A stretch of DNA of 63,109 nt, filler included, from Rhabdomonas costata (GCA_019059605.1; 29 parts of 29 records of this genome joined end to end with filler, not necessarily neighbours in it), one strand, 5' to 3'. Counted from the whole stretch's first letter, positions 12,993 through 50,039 are shown. A program made the numbers and translations. The notes: generated by a model not told the origin, from the letters alone.

Positions 12993-15900
12993 NNNNNNNN
13001 NNNNNNNNNNNNNNNNNNNNNNNNNNNNNNNNNNNNTTAATTAATTAANNNNNNNNNNNNNNNNNNNNNNNNNNNNNNNNNNNNNNNNNNNNGGGGTTTG
13101 GTTACCAAGGTGTTCTCATTCCATAATTAGATAACTAGGACATCAACATGTTTACAGAAACTAGCTTAAAGATGTTTCATAGAGATTCAATGGTGCTGGC
13201 AATGTTATATGAGACGGACGTCAAATCTCAGCCTCTAATGAGCCAGCTACTTGCCAAACGCTGTCAAGATATATATAGACAGAGCAGAACAGAGTATGGC
13301 CAGGTTAGAGACAGCATAAAAGTGGAATGCGTGTAAATCCGGCTGCAAAGATTCATGTGGTATTTTTTTGAGTTTTTCAGAGGAAGAAGGATGCATATAC
13401 AGCTCTTTCCATAGGTTTTGCAAGAGGCCGATATTTTAGAGAATTTTCAAAGACAAGACCTCAGAGAATGCAGGAGAAAAAAGGAACATGTGGTGTGTTA
13501 CACAGAGGCAGGGTGAAATGTGATTGTCACTTCTTTTGTCTATGATTTCAGAATTTAAGTTAGGTGTTCAAGAAGTCCAAAACTTCGTCAGGTTGATTTT
13601 TTCAGAGTGCTTTTATCGTTGGCTTTAGCCATTTGTTGTTACAGAGATAAATTAAAAGAACCACAGCCGACCCGAAGGCCAGATCCAAGCGGAGGCCAGG
13701 AGGTCCATGCAGATTTGTAGAGTTGCAGAGAGTGTGATTTGTATAACACTGCAGAGTAACACAGGAAAGGATGTGTGTGCATCTGGTGCACCTTCCACAT
13801 CGTTCTCGTTTGGTTGGAAATAGTGGAAATGCATCAGACGCAAGACCAGCCAAGTTGAACCACTCCAACAACCCAGAAGCTGTGCGCCAGGTCTAAAAGA
13901 TAGCCAAGGATTACCGTGGTAGTGCTAGAGCCTGCTCTATCTGGTGGAATGACACAAGGCCGGCGTAGATTGCAACTGCTTGGTCTGCGTAAACAAACTG
14001 TACACTAATGTAAAGATTTTCTGAAATAAATCATAAACAAACCACTAAATGTCTTTACTACGCGCAAAACTAATCTTGTGCCATAGTCTATCAGCCTATT
14101 ATTTAACCTTCATGTTGCAAGAATATAGAAACGGCAGCGGTGCACTACACGTGCCAAAAGAAGAAAATATTTTCCTCACGGGGTGTTAAGACGACTTGCA
14201 CGTGCGGTGGTTTCTGTGTGTGCTCCGGGCTTTGTTTTCTTTCACTTTTAGCCATGTTTACTTTGCTTGATTTGGCACTCTGCTACAGTGTATCAATAAC
14301 GGTTAGTTACTTTGACTTTGGCCATGCTGTCTTCTGTGCCTTTGGTCCCATATAGTGCACACGTGCAAAAAACATAATAGGCTAAACATATATCGATACA
14401 GCGTTCACAGCACAATTGCGTTGCAAACAAAAACATGAGATCAAGTCCGCTAAAGTCAGGTAACATGGTGTATTGTGGCAAGTGGATATCAACTCCGCGT
14501 GATGTACCGTTCTAAAGCAATTTTTCCTTGAAGTTTCCACCGAAATGCATCACCCAATATTAATCCGCAGAGATCTAGTCAAAAGTGACCCCATATTCAA
14601 ACCACCACTCGGGTTGAGGCCGCCACCTTTCATTAACTCTAACAGCTGAAGGGTTTTGCCGAGCCAGCCCATCAATTCAGACAAACGTTTGCAGTCTCCA
14701 CATGGGAATTTAAGGACATTTCACTTTCTAGATCCCTTTTCAATCAAATTCTCTGCATGCCCGGCGTTCCGTCATGCCCATAAAAGTTCCAAAGGTTCCA
14801 CAGCGGAGCTTTGTGCAACAAGATCCTGCCTTGTGACTTATATTGGGATCCACAGCTACGCCCACCGGTTACGATACATGTCTGTAAGGAGGCTGTGGTT
14901 GCGCTCCGTATGCAGTGTGATGCTCCTATTAGCCTCAGCAAGGTCATATCAGCGGAGCACAGTGGAACATGGTCCGCCATGGCGTCGTGGTATGAGTTGA
15001 TGTTTCTGTTTTTCATCGCACAAATTAGTCAGAAACGCTCCAGAAGAGGATGTGATTTATGGTTCTGCTATTGGTGAAAAACTAGTAAAGGTGGCAGGTC
15101 GGGATATATATACTTTCCTAAAACACACCATAAAAGCGTACGAGGTTCTGCATCTTCGTACAATACACCACNNNNNNNNNNNNNNNNNNNNNNNNNNNNN
15201 NNNNNNNNNNNNNNNTTAATTAATTAANNNNNNNNNNNNNNNNNNNNNNNNNNNNNNNNNNNNNNNNNNNNAAGTGTGCGTAAGGTGAAACGTCAATAGG
15301 TCAATGTTTTTTGTTCCTTTTCCTCGAGGCGCAGTGGCAAAAAGGCCATCCCAAAACCAAGATACCACCCATCAGCTGCCAGGACACCGGGCAGCTCTTC
15401 AACAAACATTCCGCTATAACCAATCGGACTTTTCATGGTCCAGGCATCTGGGAATCTCCGTGACGACAAAAGGCGAAAAAAGCGCAATCATTCACTTTGG
15501 CATTTGCTACGTTTTTGATGACAATTGCTTCCCGGAATTCAGTGAAGGCCCAGTGCACTCCCGACCAACCGGTCCCGAAATGCGGCAAAAGTAACCTGCG
15601 GACACGTTGTTGTTGACTTTCCAGAGAGGGACGTAAGCAGACTAAGCCGTGGCCACAGCAGCCATCGACTTACATCACAATGCGAAAGTCAAATCGAAAA
15701 CTCAGAATTCAGAATTTCGCTGCACTTCAATCATAAATTCTAGAAGAATATCTTGCATCTTCTCGCACGCCAGGTCTGGGGTTCCTTCGAGACTGACACC
15801 TCAACCCACGCAGCGCATCGCTTTCTACCGACCAAACACACAAAAGAGCAGTATCCACAGGGAAAAAACACAGCAGAGCATAGCAGAAACAAATCGTGAA

Positions 15901-30200: not shown

Positions 30201-33200
30201 GCCAGTACAAGAAATGCAAAGGGGGGGACGGAGAGATTCTTTATAAACGTAATAATCCCCGTCCTTGACCTATAAAGAGACATTAGAGATTATTGAGCTT
30301 TATTTTCATCTTTTGCTTGACCCCTTGATCAGATCAGATCAGATCGTCAACGTTTAGCTCTTTTGTTTTTCGCCGAAAGTTGTCCTGGCTGCATCGCTTG
30401 GAAAAACTTACTGCCTCGATATTCCCTGGTTGTCAANNNNNNNNNNNNNNNNNNNNNNNNNNNNNNNNNNNNNNNNNNNNTTAATTAATTAANNNNNNNN
30501 NNNNNNNNNNNNNNNNNNNNNNNNNNNNNNNNNNNNTAATGGAGATGCTTGGATCTTCAATTGTGCGTTCATTATCACACAATTCATAAGAGTGCACGAC
30601 AGAAGGGCCGGCGTCGCGAGCCTTCCGCACACAAGCACACGCCGAAACCAGGAACAGACCAGCCCCTCGCCCCTGTGGGTGCGTGTATGCAAGCATGCAG
30701 CAGCAGAAGTATGCGTGTAACGGTGGTATTACTGTTTCTTCGAGTCCCCGCTCCTCCTCCAGGTACAAAGGACAGGCGACACTCTCCGAGGCAATCATGA
30801 TGAGAGGCTCCACTTCGAAGCTCAGCGGAGAGCTGTGCACGCGCAACACACTAAGAGTACACCCCAAAAGAGGAATTAAATACTAAAGCAACGAGAGTGA
30901 AAAATGACAAAGCAACTTCATCAAGCATCCACCGCGGCGCGCCACAACGCAACACAACACACCGGCCTCAAAGCCTCAAACCCAGCGTCTGCAAGATGCG
31001 GCTGGCAACCTTACACACATCACAGCTGCTTTTTGGTCACTCGATTAGGCGGTGGGCTGATCTGATATCAACATCCCCTTAGAGGGCCTCAAGCAGGAGG
31101 TAGGTTTGGGTGACTCGTAATTGCTCCCCAACCCAAGATTGACCTTGCATTGGCTCCCAGAATTTTCCAGCAAGCAACTTCGCGCTGGCAAGTTACATCC
31201 TTACAGAGCTTCTCGCTGGTGAATTTTCTCTTTTGTATTTGCATTTGCTTTTTTTTGCACGTCGACCCCACCCCTTCTGCCACTTGGGTCTGATGACGTT
31301 CAGTTTCCGCAGTTCTGGATAGCTACCTCCACTGAGGCTCTCAATGAGATAAATGCAGGACCGCACGCAATCTCAGCGAGCATGAGCTCCAAGACACCAG
31401 CCTATCAAGAGACGCCCACTGACCCCGACCTCTCCAGCGCGGGGGGGGGAGCTCCAATTGCTTCTATTACTATGCCATTTAATCTTTGCAAACGCCCAAT
31501 GGCTCCATTTTTTGTTGTGCGCCACAGCCCATACTTACGTGTGCGCACCTAAGTTCTGCACGCGCATTCTCGTGACACGACAAGAAGCCCCTCTTTCCAC
31601 AGGTACCTCAGCTCTCCGCACACGCGGGGTTCAGTGTGGACCCTCGCGAAACGGAACTCCCGCGCGCCGCCGTGGCCCCGCAGTCCCGCCAGCAGAGCAG
31701 TGCGGCTCAGCTTGCAGCACAGGAAGGAAGGCCAGGGGGCGCTGCAAGGGTGCCGGGGCATCGCAAACTGCACAGCTACGGATCTGAACCGCAAGGGTTC
31801 ACAGCAACAGATGTGCGCGTGCCCGCGCATCACCGCCATGGCCGCCGCATTAGAGCTTTGGATAGATTGGTTACCGTGGTTTACCGCAGCGGCTCCAAAA
31901 CGTGCATGCGCTCAGACTGGTGCCGGTGTGTTTGCGTGGATCCATACAGCGACCATTTTGAGGAGTCCTTTCACTCAGTCATTCAAAACAACTGGAAAAT
32001 GACCACACAGAAGAAAAGCTGAAGCCACACAAAAACCGCTCTCATTGAGCTGCCGGAGTAAGAACTCCGAAAGTACGGAAATACGGAAGTCCCAAATACA
32101 CCGCACCTATCAATGAGCTCCTCATAACAGCACAGCACTGGGCTCTCCACGCCGATGCCCTTCAGGAAGTCCCGGACGAGGCCCTCCTCACCCTCCGGGG
32201 CCCCAGAGAAGGCCACCTGAAGGTAAGGTGCCATTTCCACCTCCAGGGGGTCCTCTGCAGAGCCACTGCGCCCCAGAACCTCAGACGGGCGCATCGACCG
32301 GTCCCCATCCGCCGCTTTCCTGCAAAACCACCACCAAAGCAGGTCAGGACATGTCCGCCCAAATTTGCATAAGCACCAAAGAGATCGTTCACCTACGTAT
32401 GTGGCCAGTTTTTCAGATTGCAAGTTTATTTGATTACACATCTTATAATTTGCCCGCGCCACCGTACAAGTGAGTGTCTCGAGAAATGCAGCGCTTTTTT
32501 TTTTGCAAGTGTCTTCGGTTGTCTACTGATAAGCCGAAATTGTGACATGATTCCTCCCCTGGTACGCGCCTTAATGGGGAGGGGGAAGATCAGGATTTCG
32601 GCTTATCAACAAACAANNNNNNNNNNNNNNNNNNNNNNNNNNNNNNNNNNNNNNNNNNNNTTAATTAATTAANNNNNNNNNNNNNNNNNNNNNNNNNNNN
32701 NNNNNNNNNNNNNNNNGTTTTGTTTGAATGTATTATTTATCATCTGCATTTTGATGTCCGTTGGTAATTACAACATCAAAATGCAGATGATAAATAATAC
32801 ATTCAATATCAAAACCTGCCCACATTCGGAGGAAAATGAGGAATCACATTTGAGACAATTGAGATTGGCACATTTGCTTGTCATCTGCAAACGCACGAGC
32901 ACGCTGATGAAACCGTTTTTCAAGCGGAGTAACAAAGGAGGATTGAACAAGAACTGTGGTTTCCAATGGTATATTCCAGTGCCACAGCTGACAAACAGCA
33001 TTTGTAAAGCAGGACTTCAAACATCATTATGCGTCTGCGGAAATGAATGTGAACAAGTAAGTTCATGAGTACAACACATTTGTGAGAGGTGCTGAAATCG
33101 ATAAGCCTTCACCACAAAGTGGCTTTTTTCAGTCTTAGACAATTGTGATTATCTTCCATCCTGTTAAACTGAGGATACAGCAAATGTGCGCCGCTAGAAC

Positions 33201-34692
33201 CCTTACAGATGTGGAGCTCTGTATGACTTAGAATGCCCGTTCAATCACCATGAAAATTGCATTGCACACGCTTCACATATTTGGAAGTGAGAAGCTATGT
33301 ACCGCAGTGTTTCTGGCATTCTGCCAGAACTTTGACCTAGTTGCTGAGGTGTACCTGATTGCAAGCCAAAATCATCACAAAACTGAGCAGGTACTATTCG
33401 GATGATCCGAAGAAACAATAGTCTAATTAGCCGCAGCAAGAGCTGTGCAATAAGAAATCCTCTGGCTGTGGAATACTCGTAACCTATACTTATCATGAGG
33501 GATAATCCGGAAGAACTGGAGTCTGGCCTACGAAGCCTTCAACTATAACTGAATACCAGATTAAATCATTTTTGCAAATACCACATGGTCCTTGTTGGAC
33601 AAGGTTCTTCAAATCCAGGTTGTTGACATGAGCAGTGCACTGCTAGTTGCACCGTAATGGACGAAATACTGATGGTATAAAAACTGAAATGATGACAATA
33701 GCACGTTGTTGCGCAGACATCAGTGGACAACTTTATCCTCGTGGATCAATTCTACAGCGCAGGAATAACATCATACGTAGAAAGGCATGCGCTGCTAATC
33801 TGCTGCCAGGCGCCTCTTCATCTTCACCTCTGACCACAAGAGTTAGGAATACAAGAGGGCCCACATATCTCCCCTGGTACACACATAGATTGGCATCAGT
33901 ATCTGGGTGCATCTGGTGGTTCATTAAGGCAAGCAGTCACGGAGTAGGGTATCATCCATTGCTGGCACATGCGGTAGGAATTCCTATTCACAATTACATC
34001 TGTATTCATGCGTATGGATAGTCTCAGGGTTGTGTGTGTGTACGCTTCTGTGCCATCCATCTTCTGTGGTTAAGATGTAGGCATAACGTGACTCATGCAT
34101 TCTTGGTTCTGGTTCCTCTCTTTATCTTCTTCTTGCCCTATTATGGTCCCAGCGCAGTGAGTGTTGTATCAGTAGGAATAGTAGCATGTGAGTGTAGCCA
34201 GCATGCGACCAAGAAGATATATCGGTCCGTTTAGCGTCCATCCATCACTCTTCTGCCATGGTTCGCTCCTCCACCATAATGTTTCTCCGTTCACTCAAAT
34301 CACTATCTACACGTGTCTCTACGCATTCTCTGTACCTCACATGCTCCGTTCTTGGCGTAGCCACATGGATATGCCTCACGTTGGGTTTAATCTCAACACC
34401 ACCCCCACTATTAAGTCTATCACTTATATTGCTGCCTCAGAAGCGCATATAATGATGGTACTCTGTAGCTGGATGCACCACTGCTATCTTGCCATATCCA
34501 CCCATAAAGTAGCAGTATGAGTCTCAGGTGTAGCGATGGTAGTGGGATCCACGCTCACACTACTACCACCAACCAACTCAGTGCGTACCAACTACTACCA
34601 CGGCATCGCACCATGTGTTTTTTGTATGCAAATTGTGTGTCAACTGTTTAAAAATGACCATGAACGACCAAGAGACGGATACAAAGACAGCG

Positions 34693-34798
34693 ACACCAAC
34701 ACCAACACCAACACCAACACCGACACCAACACCAACACCAACACCAACACCAACACCAACACCAACACCAACACCAACACCAACACCAACACCAACAC
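34693..34798 (+). repeat. Hexanucleotide microsatellite (ACCAAC)n, about 17 copies, running into the gap
   Basis: Seen directly. Confidence 0.97.
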
Positions 34799-41430: not shown

Positions 41431-42114
41431 TTGTTGGATTCGTTGATCACGAAAGAAGAGTTTGAGCGGCTGCTGAAGTTTGATTCTCTTTTCTATGAGT
41501 TCGGATTGACTTCCTGTGATCCGGACTGTGCCAGTGTGTCGGTTTCCACTCGCGTTTCTCGCTTCAAGGTTCACGCGGCGCGCACTACTGCAAAGGTGAA
41601 CATGATTGCGACCCTGTGCTCGCACAAGGGCGACAAAACGTTCGAGAACGCCACGTTTGTGCAACAACAGGGAAGCTGTTTCTGCATTGACGTGTTGTAT
41701 CCTTCACCTGGGAAATACACGTTACAAGTTTTTGCAAATACCACCGAAACAAGCTCATTGGTGGGCAGCTACTCTTCGATCTTCTCCTACAGTATCACCT
41801 GCAGCATGGATAATCCGCGTGTTGTTCTGAATTTTCCGCAACAGTTTCCCGCGTACGCAGATGTCGGTGCAGTTCTGCGTACTCCGAGGATTGGACCATT
41901 GAAGAGTGGAAAGGTGGTTCCTTTCAAAATCTCGAGCCTCATTTCTGCTGATTTTGCAGTGGTGACCGGTGAGCAGTGGACCCATCTGGAAAGGAAAGCC
42001 GATGGAACTTTTGAAGGTGACGTGGCGATTGGTACAGCTAATGCCACTGTGTACTACAGGGTGGGTAGATTGGGCAGCTATTCCGGTTTGCTAGAGTTCA
42101 AAGTAGGGGAGTGA
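41431..42114 (+). CDS. C-terminal Ig-like domains of a KY (kyphoscoliosis peptidase)/transglutaminase-like protein, 5'-truncated
   Basis: 227-codon intronless ORF with YPSPGKYTLQVFA, FPQQF, LRTPRIGPLKSG, WTHLE...FEGDV and YSGLLEFKV*, the typical pattern of KY-family C-termini. Confidence 0.7.
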   Translation: MLDSLITKEEFERLLKFDSLFYEFGLTSCDPDCASVSVSTRVSRFKVHAARTTAKVNMIATLCSHKGDKTFENATFVQQQGSCFCIDVLYPSPGKYTLQVFANTTETSSLVGSYSSIFSYSITCSMDNPRVVLNFPQQFPAYADVGAVLRTPRIGPLKSGKVVPFKISSLISADFAVVTGEQWTHLERKADGTFEGDVAIGTANATVYYRVGRLGSYSGLLEFKVGE

Positions 42115-47961: not shown

Positions 47962-48089
47962 TCATTATGATTGATCATTATGATTGATCATTATGATTGA
48001 TCATTTTGACTAGTCGTTTTGACTAGTCATTATGATTGATCATTATGATTGATCATTTTGACTAGTCGTTTTGACTAGTCATTATGATT
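47962..48089 (+). repeat. 13-bp tandem array with higher-order structure (A A A B C A A B C A)
   Basis: A=TCATTATGATTGA, B=TCATTTTGACTAG, C=TCGTTTTGACTAG. Truncated by the contig start. Confidence 0.95.
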
Positions 48090-48610
48090 TTTTGAAATTA
48101 AAATTTTTTGATCAAGGAATTATTTATTTTATTTAAATTAAATTTATTAAAAATTTATTTAAAAAAATTATTAATAACAAAAATTCTTAATGATAAAAAT
48201 TATTTACAATAAAAATAATAATAAAAATTATTAGATATAAAATAGTATGAAAAATTAACATATTGAAATGATACAATAAAATGTTGTCTTGCGTCAAACT
48301 GATCAAAATGACTACGTTATTTTGATCGCGGCCGGCCGGTTATCCTGCCTAATTTGCATATTAGACATGCTACAACATAGTATTACGTCTTCGACGTAAT
48401 GGCCGGCCTGGTCGCACTACCTAAGTTTTTTACTTTTTCACACTAAAATTTAATCCGCGAAATATTCATATTGTTTTTTCGCGAATTCAATATTAAATAT
48501 TCATTACTTTGACAATTTATCATGCTAAAAAATATTCATTAATTTGACATTTTTTCGTACATGTAAATATTCATATATGTATGTATGTATATAATAACAG
48601 CATCCTAACA

Positions 48611-50039
48611 ATGGCAAATACTAAGAAAGGAACCGAATATGAAATATTTATTAATGATTATTTATGTACATTAGATACAACATTAAAATCTTATTTATGG
48701 AAAAATGTTCCTGAACAAATTCTTCATGAAGCTAATTTAATTACTGATTACAATAAACATAGAATTAATAAAAAAATTATACGACATAGCACAGATGATA
48801 ATAAAGATGATAAAATAAATACATTACAAGATATTGGTATTGATATCGTTGTTCATACTAAAGATAATACATTTTATTTTGTTCAGTGTAAAAATTATAC
48901 AAATACAATTCAAGTTGATAATATATCTGGTTTTTTACTAATTATGTATAGTCATCTTAATAAATTAGGCTATCTCTATTACACAGGTAAAGTATCAAGA
49001 ATTTTAATTGAACATAAACCAGAAAATTTTATTTATGTTGAAAAAGAATATGTTAAACCAATTATAATTACATCACAAACATATAATTTATATGATTATC
49101 AGCAAAAAATTAAAAAATTATATGACACTTATTATTCTGTAGAACATAACAAGAATACAATTGATGATAGTGATTTATCTGATGATGAAAGTAATTTATC
49201 AATGAACAAAAGATCGATTTTATCCTTGCCTTGTGGATGCGGAAAGACTATATTAGGTTGTTTTATTAGTATGAATTATAACATTGTTATATTGATTACA
49301 CCATTAAAACAATATGCAGAACAAAACATCGAAAAATATAAATTGTATGATTCATCAAGAAAAGCTTTACTTATTGATTCAGACGGTTCACGTGATATTG
49401 ATGAAATTAAAGAATTTATTAAAAATAATGAAAAAGTTTTATTAAGTGTTACCTATAGATCTTGTGACATTATAAATTTATTATTAAAAAATAAAACTTC
49501 ACAACTTAAAGACGTTAATAATGAAATGAACAATGTTTTTATTATCATTGATGAATTTCATAATTTAAGTTATAATAATATTTATGATGAAAATGATAAT
49601 ATAAATCAAATTATTCATAGTGATAATTATATGTTATTTATGAGCGCAACACCAAGAATTTATGAATTAGAAGATAATGATGATATTGAAGTTGAAAGTA
49701 TATTTGGTGAAATGGTTTATAAAATGGATTTCAATGAAGCAATAACAAACGGATATATATGTGATTATGAAGTTATTTTACCAGTTATTAAAGATTCAAT
49801 GGACGATTTAGATATAATGTCGGTTGGTATTAGTCAAGAATTAAGTAAAGAATTCGATAAAAATGATTTATTATTTCAAAAATGTTGTTATTTATATGAA
49901 TGTATAAAAAGATATGGTCTAATGAAATGTATATTATATTTTAGAGACTCATCTGAAATTAAAACATTTATTGATAATTTTAATGTAATGAATGAGTATT
50001 TTAACTATGAATATGATATTGACAAAATTACACACAAAC
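48611..50039 (+). CDS. Mrr-like PD-(D/E)XK endonuclease fused to an SF2 (ResIII/DEAD-like) helicase, giant-virus-like; 3'-truncated
   Basis: Intronless, extremely AT-rich ORF (alternative start 48581). Nuclease motifs KGTEYE and DIGID...VQCKNY; helicase motifs LYDYQ (Q motif), LPCGCGKT (Walker A), IIIDEFH (Walker B), FMSATP (motif III) and EAITNGYICDY. Confidence 0.88.

Follow-up and report, generated by a model that had tools for sequence, protein, structure and literature searches.

An Mrr Nuclease–SF2 Helicase Gene on an AT-Rich Contig of the Rhabdomonas costata Assembly: A Probable Fragment of an Undescribed Mimiviridae-like Giant Virus

Introduction

Where does a lone AT-rich contig in a stretch of the Rhabdomonas costata assembly (GCA_019059605.1) come from, and what kind of protein does its only gene encode? 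The contig occupies positions 47962-50039 of the window, that is, of the whole 63,109-base stretch that was analysed, and it carries the N-terminal 476 amino acids (aa) of a protein, P0001, in which an Mrr-type nuclease is joined to a superfamily II (SF2) helicase. Fragments of giant viruses are well known from eukaryote assemblies, and an initial annotation of this DNA had proposed just such an origin for the contig. That proposal is strongly supported by the best hits of the protein, its placement in a tree, composition, and the promoter context of its relatives. At a probability of roughly 85%, the contig is a genome fragment of an undescribed Imitervirales-like (Mimiviridae-like) giant virus, neither bacterial DNA nor native host DNA, and its gene belongs to a family of Mrr-SF2-HA proteins that are predicted to act as double-stranded DNA (dsDNA) translocase-nucleases.

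The contig and its gene

The window consists of 29 contigs of 2074-2085 bp each, evidently sorted by length and separated by N44-TTAATTAATTAA-N44 spacers. Because these are unrelated pieces joined by spacers, neighbouring contigs provide no genomic context for one another. The AT-rich contig is 2078 bp long with N spacers on both sides, and its GC content of 0.226 compares with 0.433-0.564 in the other 28 contigs; the gap that the initial annotation had estimated by eye (about 20% versus about 50%) is thus a measured one (22.6% versus 43.3-56.4%). Its observed/expected ratio of CpG is likewise distinct, at 1.22 versus 0.57-1.0 in the other contigs, where only short open reading frames (ORFs) of at most 265 aa occur.

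The sole gene on the contig is a 476-codon ORF on the plus strand that extends from an ATG at 48611 to the contig end at 50039, where it is cut off. A further in-frame ATG is present upstream at 48581, but the start is fixed at 48611 by four relatives that all begin with MANYKKG and align from the same place. The longest open frame spans 497 codons, whereas 1000 shuffled versions of the contig averaged 67 and reached 119 at most, and the probability of 486 open codons arising by chance at the contig's composition is about 2e-22. The ORF reads through with the standard code, and its GC content by codon position is 32/22/11.6%, the last value being that of the third position (GC3).

Pfam searches of P0001 identified Mrr_cat_2 at residues 67-115 (1.5e-6) and Mrr_cat (1.2e-4), followed by ResIII at residues 176-349 (4.2e-13) and DEAD (1.9e-12), and the PHROGs match is to a 'DNA helicase'. 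Pfam and conserved residues together delimit an Mrr-type PD-(D/E)xK nuclease core at residues 67-129 (48809-48997, plus strand), in which the motif reads D74-I-G-I-D78 ... V-Q92-C-K94-N-Y; the codons of its key residues lie at 48830-48832 (D74), 48842-48844 (D78), 48884-48886 (Q92), and 48890-48892 (K94), all on the plus strand. Across 25 family members, D74, G76, D78, Q92, and K94 never vary, and F108 is nearly constant (>=90%). The N-lobe of the SF2 ATPase, defined by Pfam and motifs, comprises residues 176-351 (49136-49663, plus strand) and includes Walker A (PCGCGKT, 49229-49249), DEFH (49550-49561), and SATPR (49643-49657) on the same strand. The initial annotation had described an ORF of >470 codons that joins an Mrr-like nuclease to an SF2 helicase, with the motif D.GID...VQCK.Y, and both descriptions proved accurate. 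An AlphaFold model of P0001 has a mean predicted local distance difference test score (pLDDT) of 80.1 and a predicted template modelling score (pTM) of 0.52.

Relatives in giant viruses

Homologues of P0001 are numerous. A search of near-length proteins gave 250 matches (best 46% identity) and a search of representatives 908 (best 57%), while among longer proteins 370 matched at E <= 1e-20, the best being a 969-aa protein at 59% identity; nearly all of these longer proteins have HA domains. The relatives are all rich in N, K, and I, and the few names that they bear are 'superfamily II DNA or RNA helicase' or 'viral metagenome'. Full-length members are about 830-1100 aa long. The order of Mrr nuclease followed by DEAD/ResIII in a single polypeptide is common to P0001 and its relatives, and Helicase_C plus C-terminal HA (PF03457) repeats are found in nearly all that are full length.

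The affiliation of these relatives with giant viruses is apparent from several kinds of data. A profile built from 25 family members retrieved 77 related loci (GC 15-36%) from IMG/VR, 46 of which lie on contigs named GVMAG by a hand count. SF2 helicases from Klosneuvirinae and from giant-virus metagenome-assembled genomes (MAGs) share the domain order of P0001, are collinear with it over all 476 residues, and combine N/K/I-rich proteins with AT-rich genomes, as in the target contig. When the model was compared with viral structures by Foldseek, the top matches were helicases of Terrestrivirus, Catovirus, Hyperionvirus, Harvfovirus, and Klosneuvirus, of which Terrestrivirus and Catovirus belong to the Klosneuvirinae (Mimiviridae, Imitervirales). 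The top cluster in a protein atlas was Nucleocytoviricota, with a score of 0.98. Identity of P0001 reaches 59% with metagenome members and 45-47% with IMG/VR members, and none is closer than 59%. P0001 and its nearest relative differ from the other giant-virus members in having an additional acidic insert, located after the nuclease and before Walker A.

The four nearest relatives (L097-L100), detected in a metagenome scan, are 53-59% identical in amino-acid sequence and also reside on AT-rich contigs. On the 46.5-kb contig of the closest, L097, the neighbouring genes encode two other SF2 helicases, a Ulp1-like protease, a BET-domain protein, and an intein-bearing SNF2 helicase. The last of these (L097, 9890-11368) is an SNF2-type helicase split by an intein splicing domain, and it adjoins P0001's closest relative in a cluster with three other SF2 helicase genes.

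Two genome bins containing family members encode capsid proteins. In the larger, G002 (622 kb, 33 contigs), there are 6 matches to the capsid family of nucleocytoplasmic large DNA viruses (NCLDVs), distributed over several genes, and a distance of about 2 kb separates one capsid gene (C3:34845-35828) from the bin's closest homologue of P0001 (C3:37931-39187). The other, G003 (478 kb), has 5 such matches, again in several genes, along with one copy of the helicase family. Both bins encode a MutS homologue, as Mimiviridae-like viruses typically do. G002 contains about six copies of the helicase family (C1:70445-71755, C24:2939-3502, and four further positions), and internal stop codons interrupt two of these, a pattern suggestive of continuing duplication and decay of the family within this genome.

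A maximum-likelihood tree was constructed with 62 rows, consisting of the query, 55 of 120 distinct eligible homologues (those that scored best, the other 65 being left out), and six Bacteroidota sequences on which it was rooted. The query is sister to L097-L100 with a Shimodaira-Hasegawa-like approximate likelihood ratio test (SH-aLRT) value of 100, and the next clade contains L004 from G002 together with L103, L002, and L003 (SH-aLRT 92). The six Bacteroidota rows reach the viral rows via two branches of 1.43 substitutions per column each. From the tree and the bin searches, then, the query groups with genes from bins that bear NCLDV capsids, apart from the bacterial homologues. The initial annotation had pointed to best hits and tree placement among low-GC bacteria as the outcome that would speak for a different source; what was found instead are best hits and a tree position among the giant-virus and metagenome relatives, the bacterial ones being remote. 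P0001 adds a divergent new member to a known, as yet uncharacterised family of giant-virus proteins that is large and often multi-copy.

Promoter context

Another connection with giant viruses is found upstream of the genes. Of 125 distinct homologue loci, 66 have AAAATTGA, an early promoter motif first defined in mimivirus (PMC11788076), within the 120 nt upstream, usually at -30 to -65, compared with a background of 0.027 per 120 nt. In each of the four closest relatives the motif lies 35-45 nt ahead of the ATG. An upstream AAAATTGA is a common, not strictly defining, feature of the giant-virus Mrr-SF2-HA family.

On the target contig, four copies of AAATATTCAT occur on the plus strand within 48460-48574, beginning at 48460, 48495, 48530, and 48565 with an exact spacing of 35 bp; in shuffled versions of the contig, the number of copies averaged 0.1 and never exceeded 2. 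The last copy is 46 nt before the ATG, at the place where the four closest relatives align AAAAAATTGATAT. The four copies are a candidate variant of the early promoter, tandemly multiplied. The aligned sequence AAATATTCA may be a lineage-specific promoter variant, although a single gene cannot establish as much.

Kinship with Type ISP restriction enzymes

The closest solved proteins suggest what the family might do. When the family profile was searched against the PDB, the Type ISP restriction enzymes LlaBIII (3.9e-30) and LlaGI (3.2e-22) ranked ahead of any other solved protein, followed by XPB/Rad25. The match to LlaBIII consists of two collinear stretches, one running from Mrr motifs II-III to Walker A (profile 64-194 versus LlaBIII 73-219, 2.1e-14) and the other covering the helicase. 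LlaBIII was also the top PDB match of the structural model by Foldseek (9e-13, 547 alignment columns). XPB/Rad25-type SF2 translocases are the second-best PDB relatives of the motor (profile E 1e-12 to 1e-9; Foldseek 2e-8), but XPB is without a fused Mrr nuclease (Bax1 is its nuclease in archaea), and its likeness to P0001 is limited to the helicase lobes.

Type ISP enzymes combine an Mrr nuclease, an SF2 motor, a coupler, a methyltransferase, and a target-recognition domain (TRD) in a single chain, and they cleave DNA after ATP-driven translocation and collision (PMC4666363, PMC3553950). Like LlaGI and LlaBIII, P0001 has an N-terminal Mrr-family nuclease directly before the SF2 motor. Moreover, D74, D78, Q92, K94, and F108 are conserved between LlaGI and P0001, even with the same residue numbers. 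For LlaGI, it is reported that the mutants D74A, D78A, and K94A lost all cleavage and that E38A and Q92A lost part of it, while all of them still translocated (PMC2790908).

The differences are just as instructive. Sequence identity between Type ISP enzymes and the giant-virus family is only about 15-22%. No Pfam methyltransferase family was present in the 240 relatives listed (120 + 120) or in P0125-P0127; this comparison rests on the relatives because the target contig ends before the region where such a domain would lie. Nor did a TRD turn up in the Pfam lists of the relatives, although no search was aimed at TRDs. In place of the methyltransferase and TRD, the giant-virus relatives have HA repeats at the C-terminus or, in some cases, Bro-N or zinc fingers. 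Of course, the settings also differ, the one family occurring in viruses of eukaryotes and the other in bacterial defence loci. A search of the literature, the supplementary orthogroup annotations of papers lying outside it, found no mention of kinship between the giant-virus family and Type ISP enzymes.

Since the nuclease-motor module is collinear with that of Type ISP enzymes, an ATP-driven dsDNA translocase with a non-specific nuclease is the activity that we infer. The protein would thus be a DNA translocase that carries an attached non-specific nuclease and has no self-protecting methylase, and its C-terminal repeats would supply the loading specificity. In the relatives, expression probably occurs early during infection. 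Such a protein could serve in host DNA breakdown, in the exclusion or cutting of rival DNA, or in the processing or recombination of viral DNA.

A more elaborate scenario, speculative and unlikely as a whole, is that Mrr-SF2-HA proteins are methyltransferase-free, restriction-like weapons, translocating nucleases in the style of Type ISP enzymes that would be loaded by their HA repeats, made early, and used to shred the DNA of the host or of rivals such as virophages and co-infecting viruses. Repeated duplication and decay within single genomes, as with the roughly six copies and two broken ones of a single bin, would then reflect an arms race, and the lineage of the contig would have adopted AAATATTCA as a changed early promoter and expanded it to four copies.

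A separate observation concerns a BFVD entry, A0A1V0SG34 of Hokovirus HKV1 (1324 aa), which is annotated as an adenine-specific DNA methyltransferase and matches the fold of the model (E 3.2e-7). It could represent a full Type ISP-like enzyme encoded by a klosneuvirus.

Other features of the contig and the window

The roughly 650 bp before the gene contain no ORF of at least 40 aa on either strand. At the left end of the contig (47962-48089) there is a tandem repeat with 13-bp units (TCATTATGATTGA / TCATTTTGACTAG) arranged in a 52-bp higher-order unit, which probably explains why the assembly stopped at this point. The repeat may be a genome-end or recombination repeat; it has no exact match in IMG/VR, and its unit occurs again, inverted, at 48298-48311. 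An Rfam identity for the repeat was considered and rejected, in that permissive matches of 20-30 bits versus cut-offs of 61-100 were taken as chance hairpins.

The remainder of the upstream DNA (48090-48610) is a non-coding stretch, unusually long for an intergenic region of a giant virus, and a blastn comparison of the non-coding part with 176 loci yielded low-complexity AT matches only. Embedded in it at 48301-48420 is a hairpin and GC-rich island, composed of a GATCAAAATGAC...GTTATTTTGATC hairpin followed by two GGCCGGCC sites and a ATTACGTC-TTC-GACGTAAT hairpin. The two sites are about 70 bp apart and enclose a hairpin with a perfect 8-bp stem, a hairpin with a 12-bp stem precedes them, and the surrounding non-coding DNA is 24% GC. 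The predicted DNA fold of the island has an energy of -26.6 kcal/mol (z -4.9). It has no Rfam match at the gathering score and no exact match in IMG/VR.

Scans of the window for tRNAs and Rfam families returned nothing at the gathering score. The lowest GC among the remaining contigs is that of 13093-15171 and 32717-34798 (43-44%), and both are without similarity to the viral loci. Another contig contains a 227-aa ORF (41431-42114, plus strand) with a KY-like immunoglobulin-like domain (Pfam 2e-15); the clusters that resemble it in the protein atlas are eukaryotic, from rotifers, molluscs, and fungi, and no homologue was found among longer proteins. A eukaryotic source of the other contigs is plausible.

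Weighing the giant-virus origin

A number of points weigh against the giant-virus origin and the activity proposed for the gene. To begin with the contig itself, it bears no NCLDV hallmark gene, and the 28 other contigs include none with a low GC content or with similarity to the viral loci. P0001 lacks the Helicase_C lobe and any HA repeats because the contig ends at codon 476. The canonical AAAATTGA was not found on either strand of the contig, with AAATATTCA occupying the aligned position, and the motif is not exclusive to Mimiviridae, being found also in pacmanviruses, African swine fever virus (ASFV), and some iridoviruses (PMC11788076). As for the relatives, L097-L100 are unbinned metagenome contigs that appear viral from their gene context, and no capsid match was obtained in G001, a 38.5-kb contig on which L002 and L003 lie. 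In the protein atlas, clusters of bacterial Mrr-helicases score almost equally (0.97). Finally, P0001 alone has no match among PDB sequences, the Type ISP link emerging only with the family profile or the structural model, and the enzymatic activity of the whole family is a prediction.

Among the alternatives, the one that fares best shares the viral origin and places the contig in a chromosome of the sequenced eukaryote as an endogenised giant-virus insertion. Protist and algal genomes commonly contain giant-virus insertions, and the contig does sit in a eukaryote-like assembly. Its repetitive left end and 520 bp without genes are atypical of densely packed giant-virus genomes, and replacement of the canonical early promoter motif could reflect a loss of viral regulation. 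Against these points, no junction with host-like DNA exists within the contig, both ends of which are AT-rich and devoid of a host-like flank. There is also no decay or amelioration, as the ORF is intact over 476 codons with all catalytic residues conserved, and neither its GC3 nor the total GC has drifted towards the roughly 50% GC of the other contigs. An intact gene with all catalytic residues and an extreme AT bias argues against an old insertion and allows a recent one. An insertion is possible, then, if rather unlikely, and the evidence leans towards non-integrated viral DNA or a very recent insertion. A link between host and virus has no support from the contig or from the other 28 contigs; integration, infection, or contamination, including by an unrelated virus in the sample, may each account for the presence of the DNA.

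The contig could also be the end of a small satellite of giant viruses, such as a transpoviron-like linear episome, a virophage, or a polinton-like element, given that it has repeats at one end, then a long non-coding stretch, and then a helicase gene. Transpovirons are linear, AT-rich DNAs of about 7 kb, with terminal inverted repeats, a tandem repeat, and a helicase under the early promoter of their host virus (PMC11788076). By this description, they too have helicase genes on AT-rich, giant-virus-linked DNA behind an early promoter. Unlike the helicases of transpovirons, however, the relatives of P0001 belong to large viral genomes, being found both on contigs of 46 kb to 834 kb and within giant-virus bins that bear capsid genes, and terminal inverted repeats of >45 nt were found in none of 129 related loci under 16 kb, many of them partial contigs. 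These two observations make a transpoviron-like episome improbable.

Still less probable is a low-GC bacterium, either a contaminant or an endosymbiont, with a bacterial Mrr-helicase restriction enzyme as its gene. Fusions of Mrr with ResIII/DEAD do exist in bacteria, as the near-equal clusters of the protein atlas attest, and there were weak matches in PADLOC (PbeA, Cas3) and NCBIfam (a Dnd restriction enzyme), yet scores against curated bacterial families all fall far below their cut-offs. One contig of a Bacteroidetes MAG (L079) has a fragment that is 40-52% identical to P0001, but it is the only such match when one genome from each of 185,579 prokaryote species is considered, and the fragment breaks off after about 290 residues. 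In this contig (positions 1-943, and also in L088), a frame matches query residues 84-391 and then gives way to unrelated sequence that abuts Skp/OmpH, BamA, and UppS; it looks like a chimeric contig or a dead transferred fragment. Among 401 Bacteroidota genomes, L079 was again the sole strong match, and 18 others had E values of at least 7.7e-9 and identities of 23-34%, mostly from ORFs of about 1630 aa. By tblastn these long ORFs align at 21-22% from the Mrr motif onward, and they look like Type ISP enzymes. Bacterial matches other than L079 are thus only 21-34% identical, and the six outgroup sequences join the viral rows of the tree by long branches on each side of the root. A tblastn search of phages gave no match.

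It is likewise highly improbable that the contig stems from an organelle rich in AT, from a linear mitochondrial plasmid, or from some other AT-rich eukaryote present in the sample, in that the GC content of about 22% and the organelle- or plasmid-telomere-like tandem repeats at one end are offset by the lack of any detected tRNA or rRNA, a gene that reads through with the standard code, and relatives in giant-virus bins with capsid genes.

Significance

A 2-kb fragment with a single accessory gene cannot alone carry a claim about host and virus. If the contig were later linked to the sequenced organism, it would become a marker of contact between this eukaryote and a Mimiviridae-like virus whose nearest relative is 59% identical in the gene. 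More broadly, a very widespread and often multi-copy family of giant-virus proteins shares its nuclease-motor core with bacterial Type ISP enzymes, down to the catalytic residues. This kinship offers a concrete, testable hypothesis on the function of the many proteins that are otherwise left unannotated as 'superfamily II helicases'.

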